Program-made: the position numbers and the translations under genes | The notes under the pieces: generated by a model | What the model was told of the DNA's origin: nothing | Seen by the model: only the letters and a program-made list of their open reading frames with translations | Databases searched by the model: none | In this document: in pieces, positions 26,368 to 63,133 of the stretch | Layout of the letters: each line of letters starts with the position of its first letter | Numbering within the stretch: the stretch's first letter is position 1 | From: Tubiluchus corallicola | Lineage: Eukaryota > Animalia > Priapulida | Assembly (NCBI GenBank): GCA_030141605.1 | Contig: JAQGDQ010000514.1 | Coordinates: forward strand, 62,001-126,000 | Direction of reading: 5' to 3' | DNA length: 64,000 nt

Positions 26368-26469
26368 GCAAGTTCTTAGACTTTCTAATTCAGAAATGTA
26401 AGTCATCACTAATATTTCATTTCACACAATTTTGCTTCTTGCAAATATTTGTTTCGGCGTCAATTCCTG

Positions 26470-28990: not shown

Positions 28991-29019
28991 TGTGGCAAAT
29001 GTGTATCGTGCAGCTCTTG

Positions 29020-30505: not shown

Positions 30506-30509
30506 TTGT

Positions 30510-34121: not shown

Positions 34122-34449
34122 ACTGCAGGGCTGTGATGAGATGAAGTGTAATACTGGCAGGGGAATACAGCAGAATTCTCAGGTGTGCATGTGAACGTGG
34201 CTTTATCTAGCACATAGACTCTTATTCTGACCTTGTGTTATTAGGAGCCACTAGTCACATGCACACCTGCGCTTATAAAAAGGGTAGGTCTGCTGTAGAT
34301 CCTTGTCAGTGGTCCTCTCCTCCCAGCTCGGTTCACATTTCAGGCTTTGCTCTATTCTATTCTGTTCGGTAAGCTGTTTGGAATAATAAATTGTCATTTT
34401 GATTTTATTATTCATTTTGGTTTTGGTTTGGCATTGACTTAGTTCAGCA
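34119..34449 (+). mobile_element. LTR-like element, copy 2
   Basis: Near-identical to 28576-28906; preceded by a long (TA)n. Confidence 0.65.
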
Positions 34450-34564
34450 AAATCGTCGTACAGTGTGCTTTCATTGTAAAGGTGTCAATTCACATGCATC
34501 AGCAATTTGTCCTCGCAAATATAGTGAGTCTGGTGTGGCAAATGTGTATCGTGCAGCTCTTGCA

Positions 34565-35620: not shown

Positions 35621-36114
35621 AGCAAAGCTTATTTTAATTTCTACATAATCACCATTAATATATTTCTTTGTAGAAAAACAGTACGTTATTTGGAGTGTAA
35701 TAACGTGATTAGGTGAGAGCATTTGGGGGAGAAAAAATCCCTTCTAATTACAATTTAAGTATGGGGTCGTTGGCTCGCTATTTTCAAAATAAAAGAGATC
35801 TTTAGCGAATGAAAAACACCATATGTGTGTTCGTATGCACTGTGACAGCAGCGTGGAAGCTCCAAAATTTACAGTAAGTGTACTTTTATTCTTTAGCATA
35901 TTTTTAGTTTATAATGGTACTTTATTGCTTTTTTCAATAGCAAAGCAATAGACTTTAATTACATCATAATTCGCCTAAGCGAAATTCTTCTTCTTTTGCA
36001 ATAACGTGTGCACACGCGAATTCCATGCTATAACGTTTGAATAGTGTTAATTATTTTCTTACAGAATACAGCTTATAAGAGATCAGCAAACACCCGCTAT
36101 AACACGTGACCATC

Positions 36115-37696
36115 ATGGACCCACTCCGCATTTTCAGGTGCCAGGTGCTAGTGAGAAGATTAGACATTGCCACCTGTGATATATGCGGGCGGGTCTGTCG
36201 TAGTATGAGAGCTATGCAGAGACACGTCACGATCGATCATTATGGCCACGAAAGAAACTTTCTTTGCCACGTGTGTGGTCATACGGTCATGACGCAATAC
36301 GGTCTACGCTCTCGTCTACTACGGAGACATCCAGCGTGACGACAGCGGCGACAGCAACAACAATAACAACAACAATGACAACAACAGCAGCATCAAAATG
36401 GTGGCCGAGATGGCGGCGACGATGATGATGATGATGGGCCGTTTTTGTGTGAGCAATGTGGGCTGCTGTTTCACACAATGGCAGCTTTAGAGAGGCACGC
36501 CGCACAACAGCAGCGTGGCGACCAAGATGGCGATGATGATGATGATGCTGATGAAGCTGCTGGTGGGACGTTTTTGTGTGGCCAATGCGGCATGCTGTTC
36601 CACACAATGGCAGCTTTAGAAAGCCATGGCCCACAACAGCAGCAGCATCAAAATGGTGGCCGAGATGGCGGCGATGACGATGATGATGATGCTGATGCTG
36701 GTGGGCCGTTTTTGTGCAGCCAATGCGGCATGCTGTTCAACACATTGGCGGCTTTAGAGAGCCACGTCACACAACAGCAGCAGCAACAAAATAGCGACGA
36801 CATGGATGATGATGATGATGCTGATGCTGGTGGGTCGTTTTTGTGTGGGCAATGCGGCATGGTGTTCCACACATTGGCGGCTTTAGAGTGGCATGCCACA
36901 CAACAGCAGCAGCAACAAAATGGTGGCTGTGACGACGACGGGCCGTTTTTGTGTGGGCAATGCGGCATGGTGTTCCACACATTGGCGGCTTTAGAGAGGC
37001 ACGCCACACAACAGCAGCAGTAACAAAATGGCGCTCGAGATGGCGACGCCATGGATGATGATGATGATGATGCTGATGCTGGTGGGTCGTTTTTGTGTGG
37101 GCAATGCGGCATGGCGTTCCACACATTGGCGGCTTTAGAGTGGCACGCCACACAACAGCAGCAGTAACAAAATGGCGCTCGAGATGGTGACGCCATGGAT
37201 GATGATGATGATGCTGATGCTGGTGGGTCGTTTTTGTGTGGGCAATGTGGCATGGCGTTCCACACATTGGCGGCTTTAGAGTGGCACGCCACACAACAGC
37301 AGCAGCAACAAAATGGTGGCTGTGACGACGACGGGCCGTTTTTGTGTGGGCAATGCGGCATGGTGTTCCACACATTGGCGGCTTTAGAGAGGCACGCCAC
37401 ACAACAGCAGCAGTAACAAAATGGCGCTCGAGATGGCGACGCCATGGATGATGATGATGATGATGCTGATGCTGGTGGGTCGTTTTTGTGTGGGCAATGC
37501 GGCATGGCGTTCCACACATTGGCGGCTTTAGAGTGGCACGCCACACAACAGCAGCAGCAACAAAATGGTGGCTGTGACGACGACGGGCCGTTTTTGTGTG
37601 GGCAATGCGGCATGGCGTTCCACACATTGGCGGCTTTAGAGTGGCACGCCACACAACAGCAGCAGCAACAAAATGGTGGCTGTGACGACGACGGGC
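36115..37696 (+). pseudogene. Zinc-finger array with poly-Q/poly-D linkers (2 C2H2 plus about 10 CxxC...H units)
   Basis: Repeated FLCGQCGM.FHTLAALE.HATQQQQ units; CAA>TAA stops in the poly-Q tracts; GC-rich relative to the host DNA. Confidence 0.8.
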
Positions 37697-38600
37697 CATA
37701 TCTAATGGAAAGGCATGTCACAGGAAAGGTACTTGAGTTAGGTGGAGGCGCTGGAGGAGGAACCCAATGGTTGGTCACCCAGAAGAAAGTTAAAGAAGTG
37801 ACCACTCTATGCTTTGATAGAGAGGGACATGGCCGCCATCGATTGGGGGAAGAGAGAACTAACGGCTATGAGAAAAGCCACCTCCATTATTTTTCGACGT
37901 CTGTCAATTACCTTTAATGTTTCAGCGGAAGTTGGATGGCAGGTCAATGCGGCCAGTTGCATTAGCGGTAAAACGTTTAAAGGTAAGCAGGAAATTTACA
38001 CTATGTAGATTTTTTAGTTAGCAAATAGATAGGTATCAAATTAGCGATAAGATATTGAGGCAGCTGTTTTAACTGTTTCGTCGTTTTGAAGTTATTTATT
38101 TATGTTGCAACTATAGCCTGAGGGAAAATACGACTGGCTAGTGTCAGATATAGGTGAAACAAAAACTCAATTTGACTACCAAACCTTATATTCCCGTAGA
38201 AAGAGAGAAAACTTTGACCGGATATTAACAAAAGACAAACCAAAATTAATAGTCTATAAAGAGTTAAGCCCGGGTGATTACAAGCTTGAGGAGTTTGTGA
38301 ACAAATGGGGCTTGCGTGCTGTTAAGTTGCCTTATACTAGGAACTCCGGCACGGAATTCTACTTAGTCAATTTTGGGGAAGGCATGGAATACAGAGAAAT
38401 GGCTAGGGTGGCCACTGAGCTGATGACTCGGATGAGAGTTATGGGACCTCCTATTACAGTAATGGAGAGTGAGAAAGAAATCAAAGAGGAATATTATCAC
38501 CAAAGTAAACCAGACCCAAACAGGAGGAATCCACTTAAAGCACCAGACTAGACACTAACCATAGAAAACCTCAAATTCAAGTATAATGTCAGACCTCCTA
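37697..38600 (+). pseudogene. EVE: orthoflavivirus-like NS5 methyltransferase, split by an insert (about 37877-38116)
   Basis: GKVLELGGGAGGGTQWLVTQKKVKEV...EGH, then YDWLVSDIGE...YKELSP...KLPYTRNSGTEFYLV, paralleling flavivirus GKVVDLGCGRGGW, CDIGES and RVPLSRNSTHEMY. Confidence 0.85.
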
Positions 38601-38773
38601 GGACGTATTAAAGGAAACGTTTCATTGCCAACCATGCATAATTGTTGCCATGCCAACCATGCATAAACGACTGCATAAACATAACATAAACATATACATA
38701 AACATAGAACTCCATACACAAAGACGCCTACAAAATATTGAATAGTATAGAATATAGGAACAATTAAACGAAC

Positions 38774-40072
38774 ATGTATAAGAGGATCATACCAATGATG
38801 TTTTTCATTTCTATGGTCAATGGAACGAAGGAAATGAGAAATGAAACGAGAGGAGAAAAAACTCCTACCCTGAGTGCATGCACTGCACTACCTACAATAC
38901 ATAGGCATTATACATGCCCAGTTAAGAGCTGTTATGGATCCATGGTTGTTGTGGACCCAACAGTGCCATGTATATACGTTCAGAACTGTAAACCAGGAGA
39001 GTATATGCACTATAATTGTACTTGTGGGAATAAGAAAGCTGATTACTGCACACATCAGAGTGCCAAATATTTTCAGGATATGACGTGCCAAACTCCTTAT
39101 GATGATTTAAATGGGATTGGAAATGACCCAACCATATGTTCAATTGGAAGTAAAAAACTCCAAGATTGTGAAGAGGAGAATAGAAGAGAAGAATCTATCC
39201 TGTATGTAAGTGATTTATGCATAAACATATGCATAAACATATCATCTTTAGCTACCGGGTCTTTACCAAACAATTTTCATCAGCATCACACTGACTCACA
39301 GTCACTAGTAAACACTTTAAACTGTCTTCCCTAATCAATGATGGTAATTCGATGAAAACCTTTTATTTTTCCATATGAATGCGAGTCGCTTGTACCTTAA
39401 TTAAAATTTCATCACAACAGATCCTTCCATAGTTATTTATTTATTGATATTTTTTACAGAGCTTGTACCTTGTGAGGAGAGTCTGGAAGGTTTTGACCTC
39501 AGCTGGGATTCGACTGAGCAGAACTCAGAAGCAGGTGTTTCTACAGTAACCAGTGAACCAGTAAGCGAATTCAAGTGGTGTATGGTGAGTACGAACAGCC
39601 AACGATGTTTTAGCACTTTGTCCATCTCATTTCTCGAGATGAAAATGTGTTAGACATTTTTAATTATCAAATACAGACATATATAAACATAAAATTCACA
39701 CTAATTTATGAAAGAATACATTACATTAACTATTTGGACAATTCATTATTCTTCTGGCTTTTCATAGTCTGCGTTTTATACAGAAGTGGATATGAAATAA
39801 TGGCACTCACTTTTATAGCATATGTTTACTTTATGTACCGATGTGACACATTCATGGGTATGGTGTTAGTATTTATAGGTTGGTCAATTAACACAACAAT
39901 GGTGACTATTGGCATCCTCATGATGTTAGGTATCACTAATCATTTAGTGGCAACAGTAAATGAAGCAATAGCTAGGGTGTACTACAAGAAAAGGACAAGA
40001 GGGTACTACAATAAGCATGATCTGGTATATATGATCATGATGCTCTTACTTCCTATGGAGATGCACAGGATC
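38774..40072 (+). pseudogene. Probable EVE: signal peptide plus Cys-rich domain plus multi-TM ORF, split by a 440-bp insert (second copy 47967-49265)
   Basis: MYKRIIPMMFFISMVNG leader, 11 Cys, then hydrophobic stretches; halves rejoin in frame at duplicated ATAAACAT. Confidence 0.45.
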
Positions 40073-41410
40073 CTTTCAACATTATGTTATTCGGCTCTCA
40101 CGTACTTATTGGATCTGTAGAAAAAGTGATTGATGGTGAATTAGAACTTAATACCATTCTCTACGACGCTTTTAGATCCGGCCCTCATGGAATTCTCCAC
40201 GCTATCTTTAGGACAGTTAAATTAATTTATAACATTTTATTTGGTGATAGCGACGAAATTCAACATAGCTCACAATGGTATCCTTATTTTAAACAAAAAT
40301 TGACTGATTTAATATCCAAAGGTAAATCAGGCTCACGTTCTGCCGTTGAATGGACCACCTGCTTTCTCCTACTAAAAGTGCTACCTAAAATTGCAAAATG
40401 TGGCTTTCATGTTTATGATTATATTATGGACTCTCACGACCAACATCAAGGGATAAAAGAATTTTTTAACTTTTTGGAAACTGAAGACAGCCGTGAAATG
40501 TTGCAGCGCTTTTTGAAACAAGGCACAGTAGGGCTTCTTTTTGATCCGGATGATTTTAAACAATGGCAAGAAGATAACAACATCGTAGGTCAAGTTCCAC
40601 ATTGTTCTGTAGGAATTTTGGGTAACATAATCGATTTATTTGAATCTTTTGAAACTAGTGTAGAGCAAATATTCTTCTCTCCAAAAATTCACAATGCTGT
40701 ATTGGATCGCGAACAAGCTAAGCAAGTTCCCAAATGCAAAAACCCCACCTCTCGTATTTCCGCTTTAAAATATGTTAGTTGTGCTTCTGTCCCTGTAATT
40801 GACCCTCTGGATTATCCTTCTGTCCCTTTTAATAGCGCCACTCCTATTCCTCCATGCGCTGATGAGTCTACTGCCACTACGTAAGCTGCCTTTAATAATG
40901 TAGAACAACTATGCTTAAAGAAACCTGAATTGGTGCGTAGTGGCCTCGAGAAGAAAAAATTAACTATATCACACAAAATTCTTTCTGGGTATAACATAAT
41001 GTCAAATTTAGATAAAAATTTCCCCTTCTTTAGAGATTTCGATGAAGAAGAAAGTGTAATTAAGCCCAAGTATGTAAAAGTCTTCGACGCCACGCCAGGC
41101 CGTGGCGGCACCACACAATACATATGGCAATCCACCCTTAATGCTGACATTCATTTCTATCAGGACCCTCAAGATAAATGGCCCATTGACATTCCTGTCA
41201 ACCTATACGGTTTGGCCGTATTGCTGTACGGGAAAAATGCATTTTTGGCCCAATACGGCTTACAAGAAAATCCATACGGCGAAAAGAAAAATATACGGCA
41301 AAATCAAAATGTTGCTCAGCGAAAATAATCGCATCGAATATTCCCTTTTCGATCGGTACTTTCATGCAGACGATCTTACTTCCGTTCAAACGTCGTCATT
41401 GCGCACACTC
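40070..41410 (+). pseudogene. Probable EVE: pesti-like/large-genome flavivirus polyprotein fragment with FtsJ-type MTase N-part (second copy 49262-50600)
   Basis: 1.3-kb nearly open frame with SGYNIMSNLD and VFDATPGRGGTTQY (SAM-binding-like); T/C-rich codon use like 42858 and 55331. Confidence 0.5.
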
Positions 41411-41548
41411 AGCTAATAATTTTTAACATCCGGTTAACCACTTCCGCTATTTCATTCGTGAGAAAAAACACGGCAAGCGAACGTGTTCCTCCGGCGAAAA
41501 AGCAAAAAACTGGAACTGGACGTCATTTAAAAGAATGGGAGAGCCAAA

Positions 41549-42365
41549 ATGGCTTATTATACCTTCTTAGTTATGCTTGCTCTCTCTACTTCCATTCATG
41601 GAACTATTGTAAGTGTGAACAGTATCATCCCTCAACTGTCTCAGGAGGCGATTTACAAGCACCAAGACGTTTTAGCGTCATATGGGATTATCATCACTGA
41701 TCCCAAGCCCATTGGGTATCAAGTATCCCAATCTTACAAGATAATAAGAGTAGAAATGTCCAAAGCATGGAACATTCACTACCAGCTCTTCAAGGATCCA
41801 GAAAATGACTACCCCTCCAAAGCCAACCATCGAGATAAAAGATTCCTAGGAATGATTGTAGCCGGTGCTGCGATGGCAGAAGCCACTGCAGCCTTAGCAT
41901 TGGGGGCAACCAACAGGGCCGAAATTAATGCCCTCAACAGGAAAATGAGTGAGTTAAAAAACAACCAAGATATGATGAACCACGAGCTGACTGTAGTAAA
42001 TAAGGAAGTTGGCATTTTAGGACATGACCTGGAAAAATTGGAACGACTTGTTGGTAATGTTGACCATAACGTCCACAAGCTTATGCAGGCCCATGCAAAA
42101 GATATGACTCAGCTCCATGAATATCTAAATTCAGTTAGGTATGGACATGGATTGAGATCTATAACATCGTCTAAGATAGATTCACTCCTCATAAGCCCGA
42201 CTCAATTTAATCTTCTCATGTCTAATCCCAACTGCAGTGTCCCTTTGTCCTATGGTGCAAGCAGAGCAATAGTAATCAAATCAGAACCGGAGAGGTTGTG
42301 GATGTTGGTTAATGTGAGAGAGATCATTCAATCACCAAGCAGAGTGCATGTCAAAACCAAAAATG
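41549..42365 (+). pseudogene. EVE: class I fusion (F) protein, N-terminal half, copy A
   Basis: Signal peptide, furin site RDKR, fusion peptide FLGMIVAGAAMAEATAALALG, heptad repeat; truncated at a hAT junction. Confidence 0.85.
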
Positions 42366-45377: not shown

Positions 45378-46889
45378 ATGGACCCAGAACGCATTTTCAG
45401 GTGCCAGGTGGCAGTGAGAAGATTACGCATTGTCACCTGCGATATATGCGGGCGGGTCTGTCGTAGTATGAGAGCTATGCAGAGACACGTCACGATCGAT
45501 CATTATGGCCACGAAAGAAACTTTCTTTGCCACGTGTGTGGTCATACGGTCATGACGCAATACGGTCTAAGCTCTCATCTACTACGGAGACATCCAGCGA
45601 GACGACAGCGGCGACAACAGCAGCATCAAAATGGTGGCCGAGATGGCGGCGACGATGATGATGACGATGGGCCGTTTTGTGTGAGCAATGTGGGCTGCTG
45701 TTTCACACAATGGCAGCTTTAGAGAGGCACGCCGCACAACAGCAGCGTGGCGACCAAGATGGCGATGATGATGATGATGCTGATGAAGCTGCTGGTGGGC
45801 CGTTTTTGTGTGGCCAATGCGGCATGCTGTTCCACACAATGGCAGCTTTAGAGAGCCATGGCCCACAACAGCAGCAGCAGCATCAAAATGGTGGCCGAGA
45901 TGGCGGCGATGACGATGATGATGATGCTGATGCTGGTGGGCCGTTTTTGTGCAGCCAATGCGGCATGCTGTTCAACACATTGGCGGCTTTAGAGAGCCAC
46001 GTCACACAACAGCAGCAGCAACAAAATAGCGACGACATGGATGATGATGATGATGCTGATGCTGGTGGGTCGTTTTTGTGTGGGCAATGCGGCATGGTGT
46101 TCCACACATTGGCGGCTTTAGAGTGGCATGCCACACAACAGCAGCAGCAACAAAATGGTGGCTGTGACGACGACGGGCTGTTTTTGTGTGGGCAATGCGG
46201 CATGGTGTTCCACACATTGGCGGCTTTAGAGAGGCACGCCACACAACAGCAGCAGTAACAAAATGGCGCTCGAGATGGCGACGCCATGGATGATGATGAT
46301 GCTGATGCTGGTGGGTCGTTTTTGTGTGGGCAATGCGGCATGGCGTTCCACACATTGGCGGCTTTAGAGTGGCACGCCACACAACAGCAGCAGTAACAAA
46401 ATGGCGCTCGAGATGGTGACGCCATGGATGATGATGATGATGCTGATGCTGGTGGGTCGTTTTTGTGTGGGCAATGTGGCATGGCGTTCCACACATTGGC
46501 GGCTTTAGAGTGGCACGCCACACAACAGCAGCAGCAACAAAATGGTGGCTGTGACGACGACGGGCCGTTTTTGTGTGGGCAATGCGGCATGGTGTTCCAC
46601 ACATTGGCGGCTTTAGAGTGGCACGCCACACAACAGCAGCAGCAACAAAATGGTGGCTGTGACGACGACGGGCCGTTTTTGTGTGGGCAATGCGGCATGG
46701 CGTTCCACACATTGGCGGCTTTAGAGTGGCACGCCACACAACAGCAGCAGCAACAAAATGGTGGCTGTGACGACGACGGGCCGTTTTTGTGTGGGCAATG
46801 CGGCATGGCGTTCCACACATTGGCGGCTTTAGAGTGGCACGCCACACAACAGCAGCAGCAACAAAATGGTGGCTGTGACGACGACGGGC
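45378..46889 (+). pseudogene. Zinc-finger array with poly-Q/poly-D linkers, copy 2
   Basis: Same units as 36115-37696 with a different unit order. Confidence 0.8.
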
Positions 46890-47793
46890 CATATCTAATG
46901 GAAAGGCATGTCACAGGAAAGGTACTTGAGTTAGGTGGAGGCGCTGGAGGAGGAACCCAATGGTTGGTCACCCAGAAGAAAGTTAAAGAAGTGACCACTC
47001 TATGCTTTGATAGAGAGGGACATGGCCGCCATCGATTGGGGGAAGAGAGAACTAACGGCTATGAGAAAAGCCACCTCCATTATTTTTCGACGTCTGTCAA
47101 TTACATTTAATGTTTCAGCGGAAGTTGGATGGCAGGTCAATGCGGCCAGTTGCATTAGCGGTAAAACGTTTAAAGGTAAGCAGGAAATTTACACTATGTA
47201 GATTTTTTAGTTAGCAAATAGATAGGTATCAAATTAGCGATAAGATATTGAGGCAGCTGTTTTAACTGTTTCGTCGTTTTGAAGTTATTTATTTATGTTG
47301 CAACTATAGCCTGAGGGAAAATACGACTGGCTAGTGTCAGATATAGGTGAAACAAAAACTCAATTTGACTACCAAACCTTATATTCCCGTAGAAAGAGAG
47401 AAAACTTTGACCGGATATTAACAAAAGACAAACCAAAATTAATAGTCTATAAAGAGTTAAGCCCGGGTGATTACAAGCTTGAGGAGTTTGTGAACAAATG
47501 GGGCTTGCGTGCTGTTAAGTTGCCTTATACTAGGAACTCCGGCACGGAATTCTACTTAGTCAATTTTGGGGAAGGCATGGAATACAGAGAAATGGCTAGG
47601 GTGGCCACTGAGCTGATGACTCGGATGAGAGTTATGGGACCTCCTATTACAGTAATGGAGAGTGAGAAAGAAATCAAAGAGGAATATTATCACCAAAGTA
47701 AACCAGACCCAAACAGGAGGAATCCACTTAAAGCACCAGACTAGACACTAACCATAGAAAACCTCAAATTCAAGTATAATGTCAGACCTCCTA
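46890..47793 (+). pseudogene. EVE: flavivirus-like NS5 MTase, copy 2
   Basis: Same motifs as 37697-38600. Confidence 0.85.
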
Positions 47794-50733
47794 GGACGTA
47801 TTAAAGGAAACGTTTCATTGCCAACCATGCATAATTGTTGCCATGCCAACCATGCATAAACGACTGCATAAACATAACATAAACATATACATAAACATAG
47901 AACTCCATACACAAAGACGCCTACAAAATATTGAATAGTATAGAATATAGGAACAATTAAACGAACATGTATAAGAGGATCATACCAATGATGTTTTTCA
48001 TTTCTATGGTCAATGGAACGAAGGAAATGAGAAATGAAACGAGAGGAGAAAAAACTCCTACCCTGAGTGCATGCACTGCACTACCTACAATACATAGGCA
48101 TTATACATGCCCAGTTAAGAGCTGTTATGGATCCATGGTTGTTGTGGACCCAACAGTGCCATGTATATACGTTCAGAACTGTAAACCAGGAGAGTATATG
48201 CACTATAATTGTACTTGTGGGAATAAGAAAGCTGATTACTGCACACATCAGAGTGCCAAATATTTTCAGGATATGACGTGCCAAACTCCTTATGATGATT
48301 TAAATGGGATTGGAAATGACCCAACCATATGTTCAATTGGAAGTAAAAAACTCCAAGATTGTGAAGAGGAGAATAGAAGAGAAGAATCTATCCTGTATGT
48401 AAGTGATTTATGCATAAACATATGCATAAACATATCATCTTTAGCTACCGGGTCTTTACCAAACAATTTTCATCAGCATCACACTGACTCACAGTCACTA
48501 GTAAACACTTTAAACTGTCTTCCCTAATCAATGATGGTAATTCGATGAAAACCTTTTATTTTTCCATATGAATGCGAGTCGCTTGTACCTTAATTAAAAT
48601 TTCATCACAACAGATCCTTCCATAGTTATTTATTTATTGATATTTTTTACAGAGCTTGTACCTTGTGAGGAGAGTCTGGAAGGTTTTGACCTCAGCTGGG
48701 ATTCGACTGAGCAGAACTCAGAAGCAGGTGTTTCTACAGTAACCAGTGAACCAGTAAGCGAATTCAAGTGGTGTATGGTGAGTACGAACAGCCAACGATG
48801 TTTTAGCACTTTGTCCATCTCATTTCTCGAGATGAAAATGTGTTAGACATTTTTAATTATCAAATACAGACATATATAAACATAAAATTCACACTAATTT
48901 ATGAAAGAATACATTACATTAACTATTTGGACAATTCATTATTCTTCTGGCTTTTCATAGTCTGCGTTTTATACAGAAGTGGATATGAAATAATGGCACT
49001 CACTTTTATAGCATATGTTTACTTTATGTACCGATGTGACACATTCATGGGTATGGTGTTAGTATTCATAGGTTGGTCAATTAACACAACAATGGTGACT
49101 ATTGGCATCCTCATGATGTTAGGTATCACTAATCATTTAGTGGCAACAGTAAATGAAGCAATAGCTAGGGTGTACTACAAGAAAAGGACAAGAGGGTACT
49201 ACAATAAGCATGATCTGGTATATATGATCATGATGCTCTTACTTCCTATGGAGATGCACAGGATCCTTTCAACATTATGTTATTCGGCTCTCACGTACTT
49301 ATTGGATCTGTAGAAAAAGTGATTGATGGTGAATTAGAACTTAATACCATTCTCTACGACGCTTTTAGATCCGGCCCTCATGGAATTCTCCACGCTATCT
49401 TTAGGACAGTTAAATTAATTTATAACATTTTATTTGGTGATAGCGACGAAATTCAACATAGCTCACAATGGTATCCTTATTTTAAACAAAAATTGACTGA
49501 TTTAATATCCAAAGGTAAATCAGGCTCACGTTCTGCCGTTGAATGGACCACCTGCTTTCTCCTACTAAAAGTGCTACCTAAAATTGCAAAATGTGGCTTT
49601 CATGTTTATGATTATATTATGGACTCTCACGACCAACATCAAGGGATAAAAGAATTTTTTAACTTTTTGGAAACTGAAGACAGCCGTGAAATGTTGCAGC
49701 GCTTTTTGAAACAAGGCACAGTAGGGCTTCTTTTTGATCCGGATGATTTTAAACAATGGCAAGAAGATAACAACATCATAGGTCAAGTTCCACATTGTTC
49801 TGTAGGAATTTTGGGTAACATAATCGATTTATTTGAATCTTTTGAAACTAGTGTAGAGCAAATATTCTTCTCTCCAAAAATTCACAATGCTGTATTGGAT
49901 CGCGAACAAGCTAAGCAAGTTCCCAAATGCAAAAACCCCACCTCTCGTATTTCCGCTTTAAAATATGTTAGTTGTGCTTCTGTCCCTGTAATTGACCCTC
50001 TGGATTATCCTTCTGTCCCTTTTAATAGCGCCACTCCATTCCTCCATGCGCTGATGAGTCTACTGCCACTACGTAAGCTGCCTTTAATAATGTAGAACAA
50101 CTATGCTTAAAGACACCTGAATTGGTGCGTAGTGGCCTCGAGAAGAAAAATTTAACTATATCACACAAAATTCTTTCTGGGTACAACGTAATTTAGATAA
50201 AAATTTCCCGTTCTTTAGAGATTTCGATGAAGAAGAAAGTGTAATTAAGCCCAAGTATGTAAAAGTCTTCGACGCCACGCCAGGCCGTGGCGGCACCACA
50301 CAATACATATGGCAATCCACCCTTAATGCTGACATTCATTTCTATCAGGACCCTCAAGATAAATGGCCCATTGACATTCCTGTCAACCTATACGGTTTGG
50401 CCGTATTGCTGTACGGGAAAAATGCATTTTTGGCCCAATACGGCTTACAAGAAAATCCATACGGCGAAAAGAAAAATATACGGCAAAATCAAAATGTTGC
50501 TCAGCGAAAATAATCGCATCGAATATTCCCTTTTCGATCGGTACTTTCATGCAGACGATCTTACTTCCGTTCAAACGTCGTCATTGCGCACACTCAGCTA
50601 ATAATTTTTAACATCCGGTTAACCACTTCCGCTATTTCATTCGTGAGAAAAAACACGGCAAGCGAACGTGTTCCTCCAGCGAAAAAGCAAAAAACTGGAA
50701 CTGGACGTCATTTAAAAGAATGGGAGAGCCAAA

Positions 50734-52248
50734 ATGCTTATTATACCTTCTTAGTTATGCTTGCTCTCTCTACTTCCATTCATGGAACTATTGTAAGTGT
50801 GAACAGTATCATCCCTCAACTGTCTCAGGAGGCGATTTACAAGCACCAAGACGTTTTAGCGTCATATGGGATTATCATCACTGATCCCAAGCCCATTGGG
50901 TATCAAGTATCCCAATCTTACAAGATAATAAGAGTAGAAATGTCCAAAGCATGGAACATTCACTACCAGCTCTTCAATGATCCAGAAAATGACTACCCCT
51001 CCAAGGCCAACCATCGAGATAAAAGATTCCTAGGAATGATTGTAGCCGGTGCTGCGATGGCAGAAGCCACTGCAGCCTTAGCATTGGGGGCAACCAACAG
51101 GGCCGAAATTAATGCCCTCAACAGGAAAATGAGTGAGTTAAAAAACAACCAAGATATGATGAACCACGAGCTGACTGTAGTAAATAAGGAAGTTGGCATT
51201 TTAGGACATGACCTGGAAGAATTGGAACGACTTGTTGGTAATGTTGACCATAACGTCCACAAGCTTATGCAGGCCCATGCAAAAGATATGACTCAGCTCC
51301 ATGAATATCTAAATTCAGTTAGGTATGGACATGGATTGAGATCTATAACATCGTCTAAGATAGATCCACTCCTCATAAGCCCGACTCAATTTAATCTTCT
51401 CATGTCTAATCCCAACTGCAGTGTCCCTTTGTCCTATGGTGCAAGCAGAGCAATAGTAATCAAATCAGAACCGGAGAGGTTGTGGATGTTGGTTAATGTG
51501 AGAGAGATCATTCAATCACCAAGCAGAGTGCATGTCAAAACCAAAAATGGTCCCCATAGTTAAAGGGGGCACTTGGGTGATTCATGGGGCTCCATTTGAC
51601 ATGATTTTGGACCTCAAGAGTATTAAGATTATTCCCCCTGGGTCCTGCCAGGACTTCAACGTGATTGTATGCTCTGATGACCTAGAGACACAACCATTTG
51701 ACCAGTCTTTAAAGTATGAAAGATCTCCTGAAAATTGGGGTATTGTGACCTTAATGGGGGGTTGGATAGTCCAGAAGCAAGCCAGTTATCAACTTAGAAC
51801 GGTCTTCACTCATTCAGGGGCCTCTGAGAGGACAATACCCAAAAATTCCAGCCTTGTTTTAACGTGTAAGAAGATCCTAGAGTACCACTTACCTGGTTAC
51901 TTACTTCGATGCAGTGACACTCTGCATAGGCTGAAAAGCTGGATCCCAAGATTAGAAAGCCATAATTTGACAAGCTATACAGATGAGATCAATGTCCTAA
52001 TAAATAAGACTCATGCTTTACTCATCTCTCATCATGAAATTGAACCTCTCAGCTGGTATGAAGACTATTCATCTGCTAGAGACTGGTTATGGTTGATATC
52101 AGTAGTAACTTCTGTTGAGGTTAACCTGTTAATTATTTGGATTATATACAGACTGGTAAAGATTCGAGTTAAAAACCGCAAAATGATCCAGGGTGAAGAG
52201 GTAGAAATGCAAGAATACAACAGTAGAAGATCAGAAGATCAGCCCTAG
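50734..52248 (+). pseudogene. EVE: near full-length paramyxo/pneumo-like F protein (copy B)
   Basis: Signal peptide, RDKR/FLGMIVAG cleavage and fusion peptide, heptad repeat, Cys-containing core, TM (WLWLISVVTSVEVNLLIIWIIY) and tail; 1-nt loss just after the ATG and one frameshift near 51530. Confidence 0.85.
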
Positions 52249-52310
52249 CTACTCTTTAGAACATGGAACAATTCAGCTTGCTAGTCATATCCCCATTAAT
52301 CGCTTCACTT

Positions 52311-52340
52311 TTTATCTTGTAAAAAAATGAAGTCAAAATG
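52311..52340 (+). promoter_or_regulatory. Mononegavirales gene-end/gene-start junction (F to L)
   Basis: TTTATCTTGT-A7 (52321-52327), one T, then GAAGTCAAA-ATG. The same GAAGTCAAA-ATG precedes F at 54013-54024. Confidence 0.75.
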
Positions 52341-53132
52341 ACTTATGAGAGACACCTCAACTCACCTCTCAGCCTGGAATTTGAGAATGCTTTTATATTT
52401 GATATACATCACAAAACTCCAACAGAAGTAGCCAAAATTTGGGCTCTTGGACCTCCAGGAAAATGTCAATATCTGGATTACTTGAAAAAAGTTTCTCAGG
52501 AAATCAAGATCAGCCCTCCAGAACCTCTAGCGAGTTACCAGCACTCTAGGATGATGGAGAACTGCAATTCCTTTTTTTGGAAAAGAAAGAAGTCACCCAC
52601 TGAAGGAGAAGCCACCGACCAATCCAGGAGAGAACCTCCACAGAAGGAGGAATATGAAATCAAAGAGATTAAACTTGGGGACATGGCAAAACCCGCTACA
52701 GAGCTACAACATGCTGAGGAAACAATTGCGAGATATGCCAAGAGCTATCTGGCCGGCAAATATGAACATATTCCTCCACGACTTAGCATTGATATCAGTC
52801 TACTTCAAAGAAGACTGCTGCTAGAAAAGATCAGCAGCATTTTTGCCAACTCATCTGTAGCCAACAACAATCCGATTTTAATCAAAATTAATTCGAATCA
52901 TGTCTTCCACTTGTTGGGCCATTCTCTATTTGAACACCGCCGTGATAGTATAATTGTAACACATGTCAGTCATTTCACGGGGGGACTAGATGCAGCAATT
53001 TCTCGACTTACTGTCAAAATCTTACATGCTCTGCTAGATCAAGAAGATCAATCAGAGAAGCGCAATGTTATAGAAGAGTTCATAGAACTCATTCATAAGC
53101 ATATACTTGTTCCCATAAATCTCAGAAAATAA
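52338..53132 (+). pseudogene. EVE: Mononegavirales L polymerase N-terminus
   Basis: Starts MTYERHLNSPL (cf. conserved L N-terminal HL[D/N]SP[I/L]); directly downstream of F and the junction; 264-aa open frame. Confidence 0.72.
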
Positions 53133-53524
53133 AGCGGAGGCAAAGCGGTAACAAAAAATTCATCGTTCGTTTTTTTCAGTTCCTCGAGGCAGAGAAAAGT
53201 TTAAGTTTGTTATTTCATGTTTATTAAGTCCAAAGATTGTTCAGTAGCATCACTATCTAGTATTACATAAACTCTCTATCGCACTGCGAGTGTCATTTCC
53301 ACCGACATTATTTCCCATTCTGACGTTGTTTTTGGAAAGATTTCTTCAAGTATTGCTGTTGCAACTAGTAAATAATCAATAGACTGCAAACGAGTTGTGT
53401 GCGCCTCGCTGAATGAAGTAAGCGTCTTGCTGTTCATCCTTTAAAAAATCTACTCAAATTTATGTGTAGGCCTGGGGACAAGCGGTATGAATGTTGTAAG
53501 AATGATGTGTAAAAGTAATAATAT

Positions 53525-53861
53525 TGTTCTGCAGGGCTGTGATGAGATAGTGTAATACTGGCAGGGGAATACAGCAGACTGCTCAGGTGTGCGTGTGAAC
53601 GTGACTTTATCTAGCACATAGACTCTTATTCTGACCTTGTGTTAGTAGGAGCCACTAGTCACGTGCACACCTGAGCTTATAAAAAGGGTAGGTCTGCTGT
53701 AGATCCTTGTCAGTGGTCGTCTCATCTCAGCTCTGTTCACATTTCAGGCTTTGCTCTGTTCTATTCTGTTCGGTAAGCTATTTGGAATATTTTATAATAA
53801 ATTGTCATTTTGATTTTATTATTCATTGTGGTTTTGGTTTGGCATTGACTTAGTTGAGACA
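53525..53861 (+). mobile_element. LTR-like element, copy 3
   Basis: TGTTCTGCAGGGC...TTGAGACA with TATA, GGTAAG and AATAAA; more diverged from copies 1 and 2. Confidence 0.65.
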
Positions 53862-54021
53862 TGCCGCACGGTGTAGGCCGCGGTGCCATCCGTCCTGCCT
53901 CCGTTAAAAGCGGACAGCAGCCCAATATTTTAAGAAAGTTTTGTTTGCAGCAGAAATGTTATAGAAACTTTTTATTGTTTTTATACCTATCTATTGTCTT
54001 TTTTATATACAGGAAGTCAAA

Positions 54022-54838
54022 ATGGCTTATTATACCTTCTTAGTTATGCTTGCTCTCTCTACTTCCATTCATGGAACTATTGTAAGTGTGAACAGTATCA
54101 TCCCTCAACTGTCTCAGGAGGCGATTTACAAGCACCAAGACGTTTTAGCGTCATATGGGATTATCATCACTGATCCCAAGCCCATTGGGTATCAAGTATC
54201 CCAATCTTACAAGATAATAAGAGTAGAAATGTCCAAAGCATGGAACATTCACTACCAGCTCTTCAATGATCCAGAAAATGACTACCCCTCCAAGGCCAAC
54301 CATCGAGATAAAAGATTCCTAGGAATGATTGTAGCCGGTGCTGCGATGGCAGAAGCCACTGCAGCCTTAGCATTGGGGGCAACCAACAGGGCCGAAATTA
54401 ATGCCCTCAACAGGAAAATGAGTGAGTTAAAAAACAACCAAGATATGATGAACCACGAGCTGACTGTAGTAAATAAGGAAGTTGGCATTTTAGGACATGA
54501 CCTGGAAGAATTGGAACGACTTGTTGGTAATGTTGACCATAACGTCCACAAGCTTATGCAGGCCCATGCAAAAGATATGACTCAGCTCCATGAATATCTA
54601 AATTCAGTTAGGTATGGACATGGATTGAGATCTATAACATCGTCTAAGATAGATTCACTCCTCATAAGCCCGACTCAATTTAATCTTCTCATGTCTAATC
54701 CCAACTGCAGTGTCCCTTTGTCCTATGGTGCAAGCAGAGCAATAGTAATCAAATCAGAACCGGAGAGGTTGTGGATGTTGGTTAATGTGAGAGAGATCAT
54801 TCAATCACCAAGCAGAGTGCATGTCAAAACCAAAAATG
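54022..54838 (+). pseudogene. EVE: F protein N-terminal half, copy C, retaining the viral gene-start
   Basis: ORF 54022-54915; 54018-55931 duplicates 41546-43458. Confidence 0.85.
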
Positions 54839-55330
54839 TTTTGTGGTGGAGCATACGCTGGATGGGTGAAAGCCTCGTCAGAAGGCTCCGACTACTCGTT
54901 TTGTGTTCCATGTAGGAAAAATGTGAAAGTGCGAGCGTCCGGGTTTTACGACCTGAAGAGCCATTTCTCATCAACACGTGGACACAAGGAAAGTGTGGCG
55001 AAAACTAAAACTTTTCGGTCGATGGATGATCATTTCAAACCAGCGAAGGAACCTGTTGTTAGCTCTAATGCCACAGCTGCAGAAATTTTATTTTGTCAGT
55101 TTGTGGCCGAACACAACTTGCCACCTTCCATTGCTGACCATTTCAGTTCCAGTTTTTTTGTTCCAATTATTTTTTGTTGTTGTGTGGACTGATATGCGAT
55201 CTCCTGACTGGTCTGTTTCTGTTGGCTCCCAGCAAATTAACACATTTTCAGATTCGGTAAGGTCCCGTGCTGTCTTATAAGGTTTAGCAAGACCCTATAT
55301 AAGGGCAACGCTAATAACAGGTTGACAAGT

Positions 55331-56475
55331 ATGCATTGAACACGACTATCTTAAGAACATAGCTGACACTCAAACTCTTTACCATCATGATAAATTTTCA
55401 AATGTCCTTGATAATTTTGATTTCGTGATCTGTGACTCTATCGATTTTCTCCACCTTCGGGCCATTTCTAGCAACGATTATATTTCGAAGTGTGAAGCAA
55501 AAGTTAAAAATAAAGGCACCTTTTAGTTTAGTATTGGGTTAGAACAAATTAAAAACTTAAATATTTTAAAATTAAATTTACAAACACTACAAATTTCACA
55601 TATCTCCTAACGTTAAAGCAAATCAAGTTTATATTTTCCTCCAATGTTCTGAAAAATTAGATAACAAAGAAGGTTTAGTTGCTTGGTCCGCTTGGTATCA
55701 ATTCATACATTTTGTTGTTCGTTATCGCATGTACGCTGTAGAAAATGCTTTTAAACGTAAAATGAAACAATTGACGTTAGCCCATCCTATTCTTTCTAAA
55801 GTTAAAGATAAGCCTTGCCACTACACAACCTTCTCCCCTACCCTAACGTCAGACCGCTTTGAAACCATGTTTGAATGTAAGCATAACAAGCTCAAAAATA
55901 ACCATCGCCTTAACCGTATCGAAGCAATTTTGAACGATAATAAATTTTAGAAATCTGCTAGCAAACTCCAAAATTTAGAATATCTTAACGTAGAAGACGT
56001 TAAGAAAGGATCCCGATTATGCCCAAGAAAATTAAGTAATCAAATTGTAATAGCAAAATGGAACACCGAAAAATCAAAAGTATCTGATGATTCAGTTTTA
56101 GTAGCCGACTTTTTAGGAAATTTAGTTAAGAAAATTACCGGCGCTGATCCGTTTAACACCCCTGTAGTACAAGTATCTAAAAACGCAACCTTAGTTCATT
56201 CTGCTGTAAGAGACCGCTTAGACCATCCAAATAAGCAATTATCTGACGAACAAATTACTCAACTCTTAGACGCTGCAGAATACGTATGTATGCCTCCATC
56301 CCACCCTATCAAAATTGCAACCTGGGATGAATTAGGACATTTAATCAATAGACAAGGTGCTTCCGGAATGTTAGACGATTGTCAAGATTTAGGAACTCTT
56401 TACGACCGCCCTGGCACTCGCGAAGTTGTAGAACGTATAATTAACGATTTGCAAAAGTTCCAATTTTACCAAGGT
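55331..56475 (+). pseudogene. EVE: pestivirus-like/large-genome flavivirus NS5B RdRp N-terminal region
   Basis: TWDELGHLINRQGASGMLDDCQDLGTLYD...VVERIINDL parallels pestivirus NS5B WEQLEAGINRKGAAGFLE...LVEQLVRDL; upstream frame largely open. Confidence 0.7.
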
Positions 56476-58048
56476 TGACTAAGGGAGACATAGTGATTAG
56501 TCCAAGACTAAAAGTAGGATGGTTTACATATTATGTTGATTGTAGTTACCAGGGTAGAGTTGAGAGAGTAGAAGCAAACGGAATTGTGCGGGTTAAGTTT
56601 CCTACTACAGTACACGGAGACAGTGGGCAACCCATATACATGGAAACAGAAAGAGGAAACGTGTGTGTGGGTTGCATTGCATACAGTAGCAATTTGAATG
56701 GAGACATGGTAGAGGAAACGATAGCAACTGAAACTCACGGAATCTCAACTAAGGTAGAGCAGGGAAAGATACGAATTGTAACATCTTATTGTGGGAGTGG
56801 TAAAACTAGAGAAAAGATTCCATCTTGTTTGAAAAGTAGGTCTATTGGACAGAAAGCATACATACTAGCTCCTGACAGAGTAGTAGCACGTGAGAATTAC
56901 GAATCCTTGAAGAAAGTGCTAAAAGAGAAAATAGCATTGAGGACATCAGATGCTAATCCAGAGGAAAGAAAGATGATATATTTTTTGTTATGCAGTTGTC
57001 ATAATGAATGTTAAGACTTAGATTTAACAGAAATTTGTGGTATTTTAGGGAGGTGCTGCCATCTTTTGGCTGTAAAATTAATTTACCTATTTCTTAAACT
57101 GTTTACTGTACAATCTATTTACATACCATTTACTGGGTTTCAACTAAAGTTAATGAGCTGTAACAGGAGTCCTGGCTATTGTATGTTGGTCAGTAGTAGT
57201 TCAGGTCTCATAGTCTGCTGGTGAATAATGTAATTGGTGAATTTCATAATGTAGTTTGTCAAGGTATGTTGCTTTAAATTATATTTTGTGGTTTTTTTAT
57301 TTTGCTAAACTGAGAGGTTAGTGCTTTAATTTTTGTTATAGTGTGTTAAACTTAAGTGAATTATTAAGCTAAACTTCCCTAAATGTTGCTTTTGCTTTTA
57401 TTTCAGACGGCAATTTATGTTGAAACCTACCCCCCCCCCTCTACACAGGCTTCACTTCTTCATTTTTTTGACAATAAAGAAATCAACCTACCTGTATCAA
57501 AGTGTTCATCATTTTTATTGGATTACAACATGCAGACAGACAAACTGAACAAAACAGCCAGGACCCTGTAAAATCGAGGTAATGGCCCATGCAACAGCCT
57601 TAAATCGATATAGGAAGGAGAAATTGAACTTTAGAAGCTCATTGACCATCATAGATGATGGGCATTATAATAACGAAGAAACCGTGGCATTAGTATCCAT
57701 AGTCATGTACAGTGCAACATCAAAGGACATGATGGCCACAGCCACAAACCAGCCAGTGGAGCGCATGGAGATGAATGAAAGGGAAGTTAAAAACTATGTT
57801 AACGAGCAAGTAGAAGCCAAGATATTGTGGATAGTACCAGGCAACGTGAATAGTAAAGCAAAAGAAGTGAAAGGTTGGTACAAGGACAAAATAATAGTGT
57901 TGGATAAGCACAATATAGAAAACCTGAACCAAGCTAAAAATCTTGCGACAGGCATGGGGATAAGCACCAGCATATGTGAGTGTGGTGCTAACTTAAATCC
58001 TGACATCGTCATTGTACTCAAACTAATTACCCTCCAGTAACAGAAGGT

Positions 58049-58200
58049 ATTGAGACTGGAAGATGGGCAAGGATAAAAAGAGAGGACAGGCTATGCTCCT
58101 GTTCTGGCTTAAACGTACAAACAGAAGAGCATGTTATCTGTTTTTGTCCACTTACGAATCACCTTCGTGAACATAACACTGAACTGAGCTTCAACGAATT
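58049..58200 (+). mobile_element. LINE ORF2 C-terminal CCHC fragment
   Basis: IETGRWARIKREDRLCSCSGLNVQTEEHVICFCP. Confidence 0.75.
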
Positions 58201-59078
58201 TTTTAAGACGAATTTTTTAAGCTTTATTTACGAACAATGTTTTCTTGTGCTTCAAAATATGACATTGCCTAAGTGTACTACAATCAATGTCCGCCATATT
58301 CCAATAAAATATTGTAGCGTTTTATATGTCATTTCTATTGAAAAAAATAAAAAAGCTATTTTACAAATTTGCATTAAATTCTGTAGTTCTAGACCCTACT
58401 AAACACAAACATTAAGTAAACCTAATTTGGTAATTTTACTAATTTATACTATGTAACACATTATTTATACTATGTAACACGTTCTATCAAATTATAAGAT
58501 TGTCATTAAGTAAACTAAATGTTCAAGGTGATCAGTTCAATCAAAATGATACAAAATGATGTATTTACTTACATCGTACGTCTCCATAAAGCAAATCGAG
58601 TATTTACCAATATATCTGACAAATTATCACTATCATACTGTGAAAACTACTATTAAAGAAGCCTGTTAACGTCTGCCAACTAACTCGCTTGCCCAGGTAA
58701 AAACAGATCTGTACAGGTGAGTGATCGTGGTCACGTGACCAACGAGATACTTAGCGAAATTCACTACAGTCATTGATACTCAAACTAATTACACTCCAGT
58801 AACAGAAGGTGATGTAGATGTGATTTTGCAGGAAAGACCCACTAGTAGGGCTAGCCAGGTTCAGAGAATAGGTCGAGGAGGCAGAAGGAAGAAAGCCACT
58901 TATGTAACGATTGGGCCAAGAACTAGACCACAGACGAGATTTTTCCCATCAGATACAGCCATGTGGGATGGCATAGCCATCTTACTGGCTGAAGACACAG
59001 AGGCTACACTACTGCAATATGTATGGTGAGGAAGAATGCACATTGCATAGTGAGCGGAGTTTAGAATTCAAGAGATTA

Positions 59079-59656: not shown

Positions 59657-60436
59657 TAGGCGTGAAACACCCAGTGACTGAAGATATGAAAGTGCCATAC
59701 TCAATGGCTGTGTTGTTGAGTGAGAACGGTTTGCCACGGATATCAGACAATGTGCCAAACAGGAAGACGCCAACAGCAATTCTGTAATCAATGTCCAAGA
59801 AAAGGGGTTGCATTCGATTGTAGAATGCATGTGAATAAGCATGCAATGTTGGTGCAGTTGGTGGAATTTGGATTCAATTCTTGGAGTGTGGTGACGATGT
59901 TGGCAATAATAACAATGATATCAAGCACTCTCTATTATAAAATCATAACATCAACTCATGGTTGGCAAAGGACAGTAGACCTTATTAAATGGTTATGGAG
60001 ATATGCTATAGTATTCACGACTTTCTACATGGTCACTATGCACCAGGATTTACTAGCTGGATTGAATTTTGCAGTACTATTAAAGCTTAGTATGAACTTA
60101 TATGACATTATAGTCGAAATACGAGCCGAAAGGAATGTGAAACACTCCTGGTGGGACGCGATGGTTGCAATGATATACACAGGAACCCTGTTAATAGCTT
60201 TGCGAGGGGACCAGTTCATAACTTTTGTAACCCGAAAGATGGGAGTTGAAGGAGTGCAACATGTACGAAATATTGGATGGCGTTATCAGGTAACAGATTA
60301 TTTATCTGTGATACAAAGCCATCTTATTTACGTGGTGCTCGACACATCATCCATAGGAAAGTTATTCGGTTATGTATATTCCACTAAGATTCGAGAGAAA
60401 ACAAATGAAAAGGGCTTTGACGGTCCAACAATCAAG

Positions 60437-61030
60437 GGACGTATTAAAGGAAACATTTCATTGCCAACCATGCATAACCGTTGCCATGCCTACCATGCAA
60501 AAACGACTGTTTACCGTTTCAATACGGTGATATTGAAGAAATTGAAAAATTTTTGAATATCGGCGTAACTTCATGTACTATATCATCTTTAGCTACCGGG
60601 TCTTTACCAAACAATTTTCATCAGCATCACACTGACTCACAGTCACTAGTAAACACTTTAAACTGTCTTCCCTAATCAATGATGGTAATTCGATGAAAAC
60701 CTTTTATTTTTCCATATGAATGCGAGTCGCTTGTACCTTAATTAAAATTTCATCACAACAGATTCTTCCATAATTATTTATTCATTGATATTTTTTTACA
60801 GAGCATGTACCTTGTGAGGAGAGTCCGGAAGGTTTTGACCTCAGCTGGGATTCGACTGAGCAGAACTCAGAAGCAGGTGTTTCTACAGTAACCAGTGAAT
60901 CAGTATCAGTAAGCGAATTCAAGTGGTGTATGGTGAGTACGAACAGCCAACAATGTTTTAGCACTTTGTGCATCTCATTTCTCGAGATGAAAATGTGTTA
61001 GACATTTTTTAATTATCAAATACAGACACA
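60437..61030 (+). repeat. Recurrent non-viral module (split copies at 38601-38673 + 39239-39679 and 47794-47866 + 48432-48872)
   Basis: GGACGTATTAAAGGAAAC...ATCATCTTTAGCTACCGGG...CAAATACAGACA shared by three loci. Confidence 0.85.
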
Positions 61031-61620: not shown

Positions 61621-62764
61621 ATCTAAAGCACGAGGGATGTGTCTCACCTTTCTGGCTAGCAGACTGACAGTAACTTTCAGAAACAAAAGTGGGTGTTGAG
61701 TTAGTATATGACTCAGTACCTTGAGTTTCAGCATTTGAAACCCTTGATGCTTTATCCATTTTAGAGCTTTCTTTAGATTTTATGCTACCACTCAGATTAG
61801 CAGTACACTTTTTATTGCTTAGACAATCACTTGCTGATGATTTGGAACTTCTTAATCTTATTAGGTAGCTATGAGGCATTAGCTTACTGTTACATAAGTT
61901 TATTAGCGTCTGTTTACTACAGTTCGCTAGGTTCAGCTCAGCTTCATAAATTGTTTGGCGTGGAAAACTTCGAGGCTTTACACCAATAGTAATGGCGGCT
62001 GGAACTATACTCCAGGTTACGGCATACAGCAGTGTCAAGGCCACAACAAGTGCTGTGCAAGAATACTGCCGACGTAAAATTAAAATGTTCTCACCGTATT
62101 TGTTCTCCAAAAACTTCATAAACTTCACTGCCGAAGATTACTTATATAATTTTGCAGGCATCAAAGGTGAGATATCACGTAAAATAATTGTTTTTATTCA
62201 AGTTTGCTAATTTTGTGTGAGCACCAATACTATCAGCATTATTATTTCCTCTTTCCAATCTGGCCTTCCCTGTTTGAGTCACTTGTCATGTTACAATCTT
62301 AAGCTGATGAGCCTACCTCATGTAAAACTGTTTTAAAAAAGAGATTACTTTTACTAAACCATCGCAGATGATGTGACTTTGAAGAAATGTAAAGAAAAGT
62401 TTTAAACATAAAGAAACACACACGTATATGGTCGTTAGCATTGCTTATATTTTTTACATTCGCAACTGTTTTTGCCAATCGCTCAGTGCAGCATGAAAAT
62501 TGTTTAAAAACATAGGAGAATTTAAAACATTGATGAAGCTTTGTATGGTGAAAATATGTTGTAGTTATCACAATACTTTCTCATTGTTAATAAGATCTTT
62601 CAGATCAATGAGTCGTAATATTTACAGTCAGCTAACTATTGGCTATTCCGCAAATGTTTCTTTTTGCATTTTTGTTCAAATTGATTTTTTTTAAATTTTG
62701 ATTTACTGAAGTAGGCAAACTTGAAAAGCCAAGGCTCCTTGGTCTCACTTAAACCATTCACTTC

Positions 62765-63133
62765 ATGAACTTAATTCGAAAAAATTTAGTGCGTCTCCGA
62801 GATGCTGGATGGGACCAAAAACAGATTGAAAACCTTGAGACAGAATTTCATGGTCTGAAGAGAGACTACAGAGACAATGAACCCACCAAGACTGCATTGG
62901 ATACGATGACAGATGACACACCATTCCTCCAAGCTTGGAAGAACTTCGATCGCTACTCTTCCTTGATGGAATTTTCTGGAGGACGTGCAACTCTCTTTCC
63001 GTCAACAGCCACTGTAGAGGCTGACTTTAGCATTGTTGGGGAAATCAAAGATTGCTATAAGCAGAGCATGACAGACTTCAGCCTGGAGGGGTGCCTCCAA
63101 GCAAAACAGTTTTTTGAACTGATGAAAATGTGA
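62765..63133 (+). mobile_element. hAT-like transposase C-terminal (dimerisation) fragment
   Basis: FSGGRATLFPSTATVEADFSIV...KQSMTDFSLEGCLQAKQF. Confidence 0.75.

Follow-up and report, generated by a model that had tools for sequence, protein, structure and literature searches.

The stretch of DNA analysed here, a window of 64 kb to which all positions refer, carries on its forward strand a broken gene for a class I fusion protein (F), joined through a run of seven A (A7) and the motif GAAGTCAAA to what are likely the first 256 codons of a viral polymerase gene (L). Our preferred explanation, which we regard as fairly probable, is that this is a copy, in the germ line of a non-arthropod invertebrate, of an F-L read-through mRNA from an unrecorded mononegavirus-type virus that would carry F as its envelope protein directly ahead of L. 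In more general terms, the insert is probably an endogenous piece of such a virus, in which a compact class I fusogen stood before L. An initial annotation had described an F-L fossil with its transcription signals, and the parts that it listed (F, a short UTR, here 72 nt, A7, a 1-nt spacer, a gene start and an HLNSPL-type start of L) are all found as described. The class I gene and the junction are genuine; the scores that identify L are marginal, as discussed below.

The F-like gene (50734-52248) comprises about 500 codons over two frames, which are open at 50514-51563 and 51502-52248, with a stop at 52248. The parts of the protein are, in order, a signal peptide, an RDKR cleavage site (51015-51026), a fusion peptide, a long heptad helix, a membrane anchor (at about 52080-52160) and a tail. 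Both HR1 and HR2 are present, completing the feature set of a class I fusion protein. On the basis of the signal peptide, the RDKR site, the fusion peptide, the long helix and the anchor, F is a class I fusion protein. It had been called near-complete, but its ATG at 50734 does not share a frame with the long ORF that follows, so that F is broken at its start, and there is a second frame break near 51550. Contigs of two runs from one sample (X1 and X2) differ from the window at this second break, which may therefore be allelic or an error of assembly.

Three copies of the first ~817 nt of F occur, at 41549, 50734 and 54022, differing from each other by 1-5 mismatches; the two extra copies are additions to the initial annotation. 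The copy at 54022 lies behind a second gene start (54013-54021; the whole piece is 54013-54838, forward strand) and is cut at codon 272 of F. The other (41549-42365, forward strand) is a solo copy, located between the same two host flanks as the main insert. The copy at 54022 has a reading frame of 297 open codons that lacks the membrane anchor. Directly upstream of its gene start at 54013 are a TATA box, a donor-like GTAAG and an acceptor-like CAG (53678-54022), and a putative spliced, secreted F fragment is a possible product. The F-L element is today likely to be non-coding debris.

The affinities of F are remote. The Pfam Fusion_gly model finds it with E 6e-4 to 8e-4, below the cut-off. 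In the ESM Atlas the nearest clusters are two Fusion_gly clusters of Negarnaviricota, at 0.95 (26% of members) and 0.94 (80%), and a third, Baculo_F-type eukaryote cluster at 0.94 (15% of members). A paramyxovirus F profile (37 sequences) gives the N-terminal part 15.7 bits (best shuffle 6.3), from the fusion peptide only, and the C-terminal part 0.8 bits; on the same profile six pneumovirus F reach 70-124 bits. The corresponding scores on a pneumovirus F profile (6 sequences) are 7.6 bits (best shuffle 5.7) and -1.3. On a profile of 28 baculovirus F, the C-terminal half scores 11.8 bits (best shuffle 4.1), from HR2 to the membrane anchor, and the N-terminal half 2.9 bits, not above shuffles; the baculovirus fusion-peptide motif GxxNF.G...KYLFGxMD is absent. 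The alignable stretch is only about 45 residues. Cysteines number 5 in F; the median among 43 paramyxo/pneumovirus F is 12. A search of PDB sequences with F has a measles-type F as its top row, at E 0.77, and no relatives were found in a homologue search of longer proteins, in viral contigs, in metagenome contigs or among PDB sequences. A single-sequence AlphaFold2 model, which had been proposed as a check, contains the long helix typical of class I, 100 residues from the fusion peptide onward with pLDDT 87-94 at its core, but is poor overall (pLDDT 56), and a Foldseek search with this poor model gave no match at E 0.001.

The description of F as paramyxo-like is thus too narrow, since the similarity is confined to the fusion peptide and the C-terminal half scores on baculovirus F instead. 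A paramyxovirus or pneumovirus F was rejected for want of family-level similarity and of a cysteine-rich F. A baculovirus F was rejected because neither a whole-length match nor the fusion peptide was found; the grouping with baculovirus F that might have overturned the original proposal is not clear either. Its sequence puts F within the F superfamily as a distant member that falls outside the group of paramyxo- and pneumoviruses and has no clear grouping with baculovirus F.

The stop codon of F is followed by a 3' UTR of 72 nt (52249-52320), the A7 gene-end-like tract (52321-52327), a single T that is likely to be the intergenic base (52328), and the gene-start-like GAAGTCAAA (52329-52337), directly before the ATG at 52338. 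The A7/T junction resembles the A-tract junctions upstream of L in the mononegavirus loci that were fetched for comparison. The 12-mer GAAGTCAAAATG has exactly two copies in the 64 kb, at 54013 and 52329, where 0.016 would be expected from base composition, and both end in an ATG, that of F at 54013 and that of the L-like ORF at 52329. With one mismatch allowed there are 3 matches, compared with 0.79 expected, and a count of 3 is also reached in 4 of 100 shuffles. Taken by itself, the 9-mer GAAGTCAAA lacks significance, since a further copy lies at 61203 on the minus strand. The A tract, the short spacer and a start motif repeated at more than one gene are the arrangement of Mononegavirales gene-end and gene-start signals. 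We infer that GAAGTCAAA is a transcription start, and no other finding argues as strongly as the shared GAAGTCAAAATG for an origin of both genes in one virus with stop-start transcription.

The L-like ORF begins MTYERHLNSPL, with HLNSPL as residues 6-11, and 52338-53106 (forward strand) represents the probable N-terminal 256 codons of a mononegavirus-type L. The viral sequence stops near 53106, and the last codons and the stop of the ORF come from a host repeat unit at 53107-54012. Of the linear N-P-M-G-L genome of Mononegavirales, the insert contains no N, P or M, and it ends before the RdRp core with its GDN motif, from which order and family, and with them any bearing on the origin of paramyxovirus F, would follow. 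Natural L genes were fetched from IMG/VR using polymerase motifs and built into profiles; their family labels are our own, based on an RdRp tree and on N-termini. A profile of 52 L N-termini gives the ORF 20.6 bits, colinear over residues 3-239; the top score among 1000 shuffles is 7.5, the runner-up of the 244 window targets (other ORFs) has 8.8, and no control among 930 real viral pieces exceeds 6.3. A profile of 124 sequences gives 21.6 bits, against 11.9 for the best control. Five other broad profiles give 6.5-11.9 bits, and only one of these beats all its controls. Overall, the ORF is above all controls in three of the seven broad profiles and is aligned from the N-terminus in six; with the remaining four (6.5-8.3 bits) the best control is not beaten, and the score therefore depends on how the profile is built. 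None of the six named-family profiles puts it above shuffles (among them paramyxovirus, -1.2 bits, and pneumovirus, 1.4 bits, the pneumovirus L and F profiles being of 6 sequences each), and a mixed remainder profile of 32 sequences does so barely (7.0 against 5.5).

The alignments are anchored at HLNSP and at a D..SR helix, and the predicted helix-sheet-helix order at residues 122-255 fits the corresponding region of the profile. All of the ESM Atlas neighbours listed are viral RdRp clusters, at 0.86-0.90, rated weak by the tool; the recognition values obtained from the Atlas in this analysis (1817 and 2007) fall below its line of 2300. No match was obtained in Pfam, in PDB sequences, in a homologue search of longer proteins or by phmmer against 1.84 billion representative proteins, and searches of viral and metagenome contigs gave no relatives. 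The single-sequence AlphaFold2 model is poor (pLDDT 44), and fold searches with it gave nothing usable. Taken together, the comparisons make it very likely that the ORF at 52338 is L. Viral and metagenome contigs yielded no exogenous virus, no RNA data set is listed as carrying the element, and the virus is probably undescribed, no close relative being present in the databases searched.

The limits of the insert follow from comparison with other contigs. In contigs of the runs X1, X3 and X4, 54012 is connected back to 53107 through 11-12 other letters and no viral sequence, which identifies 53107-54012 as a host unit of 906 nt on the forward strand (with a TATA box at 53678, GTAAG at about 53773 and the acceptor-like CAG ending at 54012) and places the end of L near 53106. 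Since the host unit ends at 54012, the viral sequence behind it opens precisely with the G of F's gene start. A 340-nt core of the unit is repeated at 28568 and 34111. On the outside, the insert is flanked by the two parts of another host repeat, both on the forward strand: the left part (50415-50733) ends in CAAAATG, which is common to the start of F, and the right part (54839-55198) contains a zinc-finger-like remnant, hAT-like by eye only and with no Pfam hit. In contigs of X1 and X4, which come from two studies, 50734 is connected to 54838, so that this repeat is seen with its site empty, and the CAAAATG is shared with both ends of the insert. Near-identical F and L pieces in X4, from the second study, differ at 0-1 positions over 151-213 nt, from which it follows that the insert is common to two samples. 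The runs X5 and X6, with the same species label, cover 4 and 1 of 30 bins, and the absence of the insert there is uninformative.

The contigs also contain related L pieces from elsewhere in the host. In X1 to X4 there is a second L-like piece over 52329-52468, with 24 differences in 140 nt (83% identical). It begins to match exactly at 52329, with no extension into the A tract; 17 of its differences are itemised, and every one of the 5 that fall in codons 1-18 is synonymous (hand count). Two X4 contigs, of 1535 and 1448 nt, overlap the L piece; the related L piece in X4 over 52862-53107, on the 1448-nt contig, is 91% identical and runs about 1170 nt past the breakpoint in the window.

The template had been described as genome, antigenome or readthrough RNA, and can now be narrowed to a likely read-through mRNA. 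The insert begins exactly at F's gene start, and two pieces that start at gene starts argue for mRNA templates, while the one that crosses the junction argues for read-through. On this basis we hypothesise that a host reverse transcriptase copied an F-L read-through mRNA from an internal point in L up to the 5' end of the RNA. The copy would have landed at a joint of the 906-nt host repeat unit and then moved, as a circle or tandem copy, into the second host repeat via the shared CAAAATG, leaving 817 nt as a direct repeat. The copy that stands alone at 41.5 kb would be a pop-out product or a precursor. The small number of lesions had been read as a sign of recent capture, but lesions date the duplications better than the capture. 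The same virus could instead have been copied from genome or antigenome RNA with a chance break at the F gene start. The insert spans the junction with its intergenic base and has no poly(A), and F starts directly behind the host CAG, where a chance breakpoint is the counter-reading; but the F piece and the second L piece both start exactly at GAAGTCAAA, and we consider this version unlikely.

The main rival explanation concerns the virus itself. A jingchuvirus with a class I glycoprotein, of the Tasmanian devil or Ciona chu-like type or the aliusvirus type, could have supplied the insert if its GP was read into L across the circle joint of an L-NP-X-GP genome. Such viruses resemble the insert in being negative-strand viruses with a class I or metapneumo-like glycoprotein: the invertebrate Ciona chu-like virus is reported to have a metapneumo-like one (bioRxiv 2024.12.15.628590), and class I proteins are reported in Aliusviridae (PMC12583693). 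Circular genomes are known among jingchuviruses (PMC10770922), and on such a genome GP could adjoin L. The order L-NP-X-GP is described for the chu-like/aliusvirus group (bioRxiv 2024.11.25.625296, PMC11508223), with L first and GP last in a circular ollusvirus (PMC11508223), and our best-scoring broad L profile included chuviruses. Against this, HLNSPL is a mononegavirus-type start: the motif L[NDSRQ][SA]P[ILV] is found in 87 of 107 non-chuvirus L and in 0 of 17 chuvirus L, and the chuvirus profile gives -2.4 bits. The L-like ORF is thus unlike 15-17 classical chuviruses, a set that probably lacks TDCV, Ciona and aliusvirus L. In addition, the reported jingchuvirus GPs are larger, at 741 aa (TDCV) or about 135 kDa, compared with about 500 aa for F here, and the TDCV genome is linear. 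We therefore regard a jingchuvirus source as improbable.

Two further explanations deny that F and L belong together, or that L is L, and both are considerably less probable. F could be a retroelement env, or an F of baculovirus type, that shuffling placed next to an unrelated ORF in a locus that is a mosaic with many joints. Elements with F-type env are reported to occur widely in non-insect invertebrates (PMC13524379). Both baculovirus F and errantivirus F-type env belong to the same fusogen superfamily as F, and the C-terminal half has its weak match to baculovirus F from HR2 to the membrane anchor. This is hard to reconcile with a shared 12-mer before both ATGs and with A7 between the genes. 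Moreover, the N-terminal half does not score above shuffles on baculovirus F, whose fusion peptide is different (no LFGxMD motif is present here) and which has 15-24 cysteines in the four examined, compared with 5. Errantivirus env occurs in a retroelement context, behind gag-pol and flanked by LTRs, whereas no gag, pol or LTR was found among 26 ORFs scanned here. We rate shuffling as highly improbable. That the ORF at 52338 is some other viral or host gene would agree with the absence of any signal in four of the seven profiles, phmmer, Pfam and the fold searches, but leaves unexplained the colinear N-terminal alignment in six of the seven, anchored at HLNSP and the D..SR helix, the exclusively synonymous change around HLNSPL in the related piece, and the fit of the helix-sheet-helix order; we think it very unlikely.

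It remains to compare the F-L virus that we prefer with known systems. F lies directly before L in none of the 43 F-bearing loci fetched (paramyxo/pneumovirus), and none of 65 ORFs of at least 400 aa directly before L in the fetched loci scores more than 6.2 bits on the F profile. The novelty claimed for the F-L order was overstated, since a glycoprotein directly before L is usual in mononegaviruses and found in some chuviruses. The rhabdoviruses in the fetched set have the glycoprotein and then L. In Rhabdo-, Xinmo-, Lispi-, Nyami- and Artoviridae, as here, a glycoprotein is directly before L, the junction is compact and L has an L[ND]SP start. The G of these single-glycoprotein mononegaviruses is class III. 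Glycoprotein then L is an ordinary order, and what is new is the class of protein in that slot. For chuviruses, the order N-G-L has been described (PMC6932829). Paramyxoviridae and Pneumoviridae share with the insert a class I F with a basic cleavage site and an FxG[MV][IV]xAGAA fusion peptide, and paramyxoviruses also have A-tract junctions and an L starting H-L-[ND]-S-P. However, Paramyxoviridae have an attachment gene between F and L, where there is here only the 72-nt UTR, and Pneumoviridae have M2 or other genes there; the host here is an invertebrate, unlike theirs. A metagenome contig that is sister to Paramyxoviridae in the RdRp tree has F (545 aa), a 461-aa ORF and L. Styela rustica patchyvirus 1 is reported as an invertebrate mononega-like virus with one glycoprotein, at the base of the paramyxo/pneumoviruses (bioRxiv 2024.12.15.628590), but its glycoprotein is class II, not class I as here. 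A compact F directly before L in an invertebrate mononegavirus was not found in the literature searched, which was mostly outside subscription journals, and no F-L virus appears in the available portions of bioRxiv 2026.08.30.748148 or PMC13709462.

Fusion proteins of this kind are best known from viruses of vertebrates, measles virus among them, but class I proteins have already been reported in the invertebrate jingchuviruses cited above. Class I proteins of Mononegavirales are reported to be monophyletic, beside those of baculoviruses and retrotransposons (PMC12583693). The origin of paramyxo- and pneumovirus F is debated, and an invertebrate mononegavirus-type genome with F directly before L would be a missing data point. 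The F-L insert preserves, with single-base precision, a gene start and a read-through mRNA as its likely template, in hosts whose RNA-virus fossils have received little study, and it provides a motif and a host group for searching. A wider interpretation has, in our judgement, about an even chance of being right: that non-arthropod invertebrates are host to a mononegavirus family, so far unrecognised, with a single envelope protein, carried in the slot directly before L, that is a compact, cysteine-poor class I fusogen intermediate between paramyxo/pneumovirus F and baculovirus/errantivirus F. If it is right, class I fusion exists in mononegaviruses outside vertebrates, contrary to the suggestion by the authors of the patchyvirus study that class I arrived with vertebrate hosts (bioRxiv 2024.12.15.628590); the 83% and 91% identical sister pieces would then be several strains captured from mRNAs, and the lineage may still circulate.

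The F-L insert sits in a 38-kb pile of RNA-virus scraps, all on the same strand. From 24 kb to 62 kb, flavi-like pieces, class III glycoprotein pieces and further L pieces make up a duplicated mosaic on the forward strand, and between 24000 and 61000 every ORF of at least 120 aa outside the tandem repeats is on that strand. A segment at 37477-42365 is repeated at 46670-51549 with 99.6% identity. The second set of L protein pieces (28926-30511 and 34403-35716) represents the capping and methyltransferase regions and is interrupted by a 33-bp tandem repeat; these pieces score best on a xinmo/lispi-like profile (21.7 and 37.3 bits) and are probably from another virus. Class III-type glycoprotein pieces are found at 25645-26771, 30511-30851 and 31642-32226 (Monjiviricetes_fusion E 0.13), in two versions that are 78% identical. 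The flavi-like pieces (55951-59029, 47310-47744, 38117-38551 and 59720-60556) include an NS3 protease-helicase (Flavi_DEAD E 6.7e-8) and a membrane ORF and, by eye, NS5 RdRp-like and methyltransferase-like pieces. The ORFs at 49214-50095, 47961-48527 and 50133-50513, which have copies 9.2 kb upstream, have no Pfam hit and are possibly further viral pieces. Similarly dense same-strand accumulations of RNA-virus and transposon pieces are described in mosquito EVE clusters (piRNA clusters), although the host here is not an arthropod. The locus is likely to be a trap for virus and transposon scraps, putatively like a piRNA cluster, a kind of locus marked by strand-biased, PIWI-bound RNAs of 24-32 nt.

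The proposal of an invertebrate host is borne out by a flanking host exon of 74 aa, which gives 45 matches among 96 candidates. Its best named matches are bivalve (78%), annelid (77%), crinoid (76%) and brachiopod (74%), with 57-61% identity to arthropods and 57-60% to vertebrates, and this one exon points to a non-arthropod invertebrate. A hAT dimerisation-like remnant is recognisable by eye at 62753-63133, with no Pfam hit. On the other side of the cluster, also by eye, exons of a cationic amino acid transporter are present on the forward strand (34-10629), and acyl-CoA-binding/ankyrin-like exons on the reverse strand (21513-22328), so that the cluster starts back to back with the latter gene.
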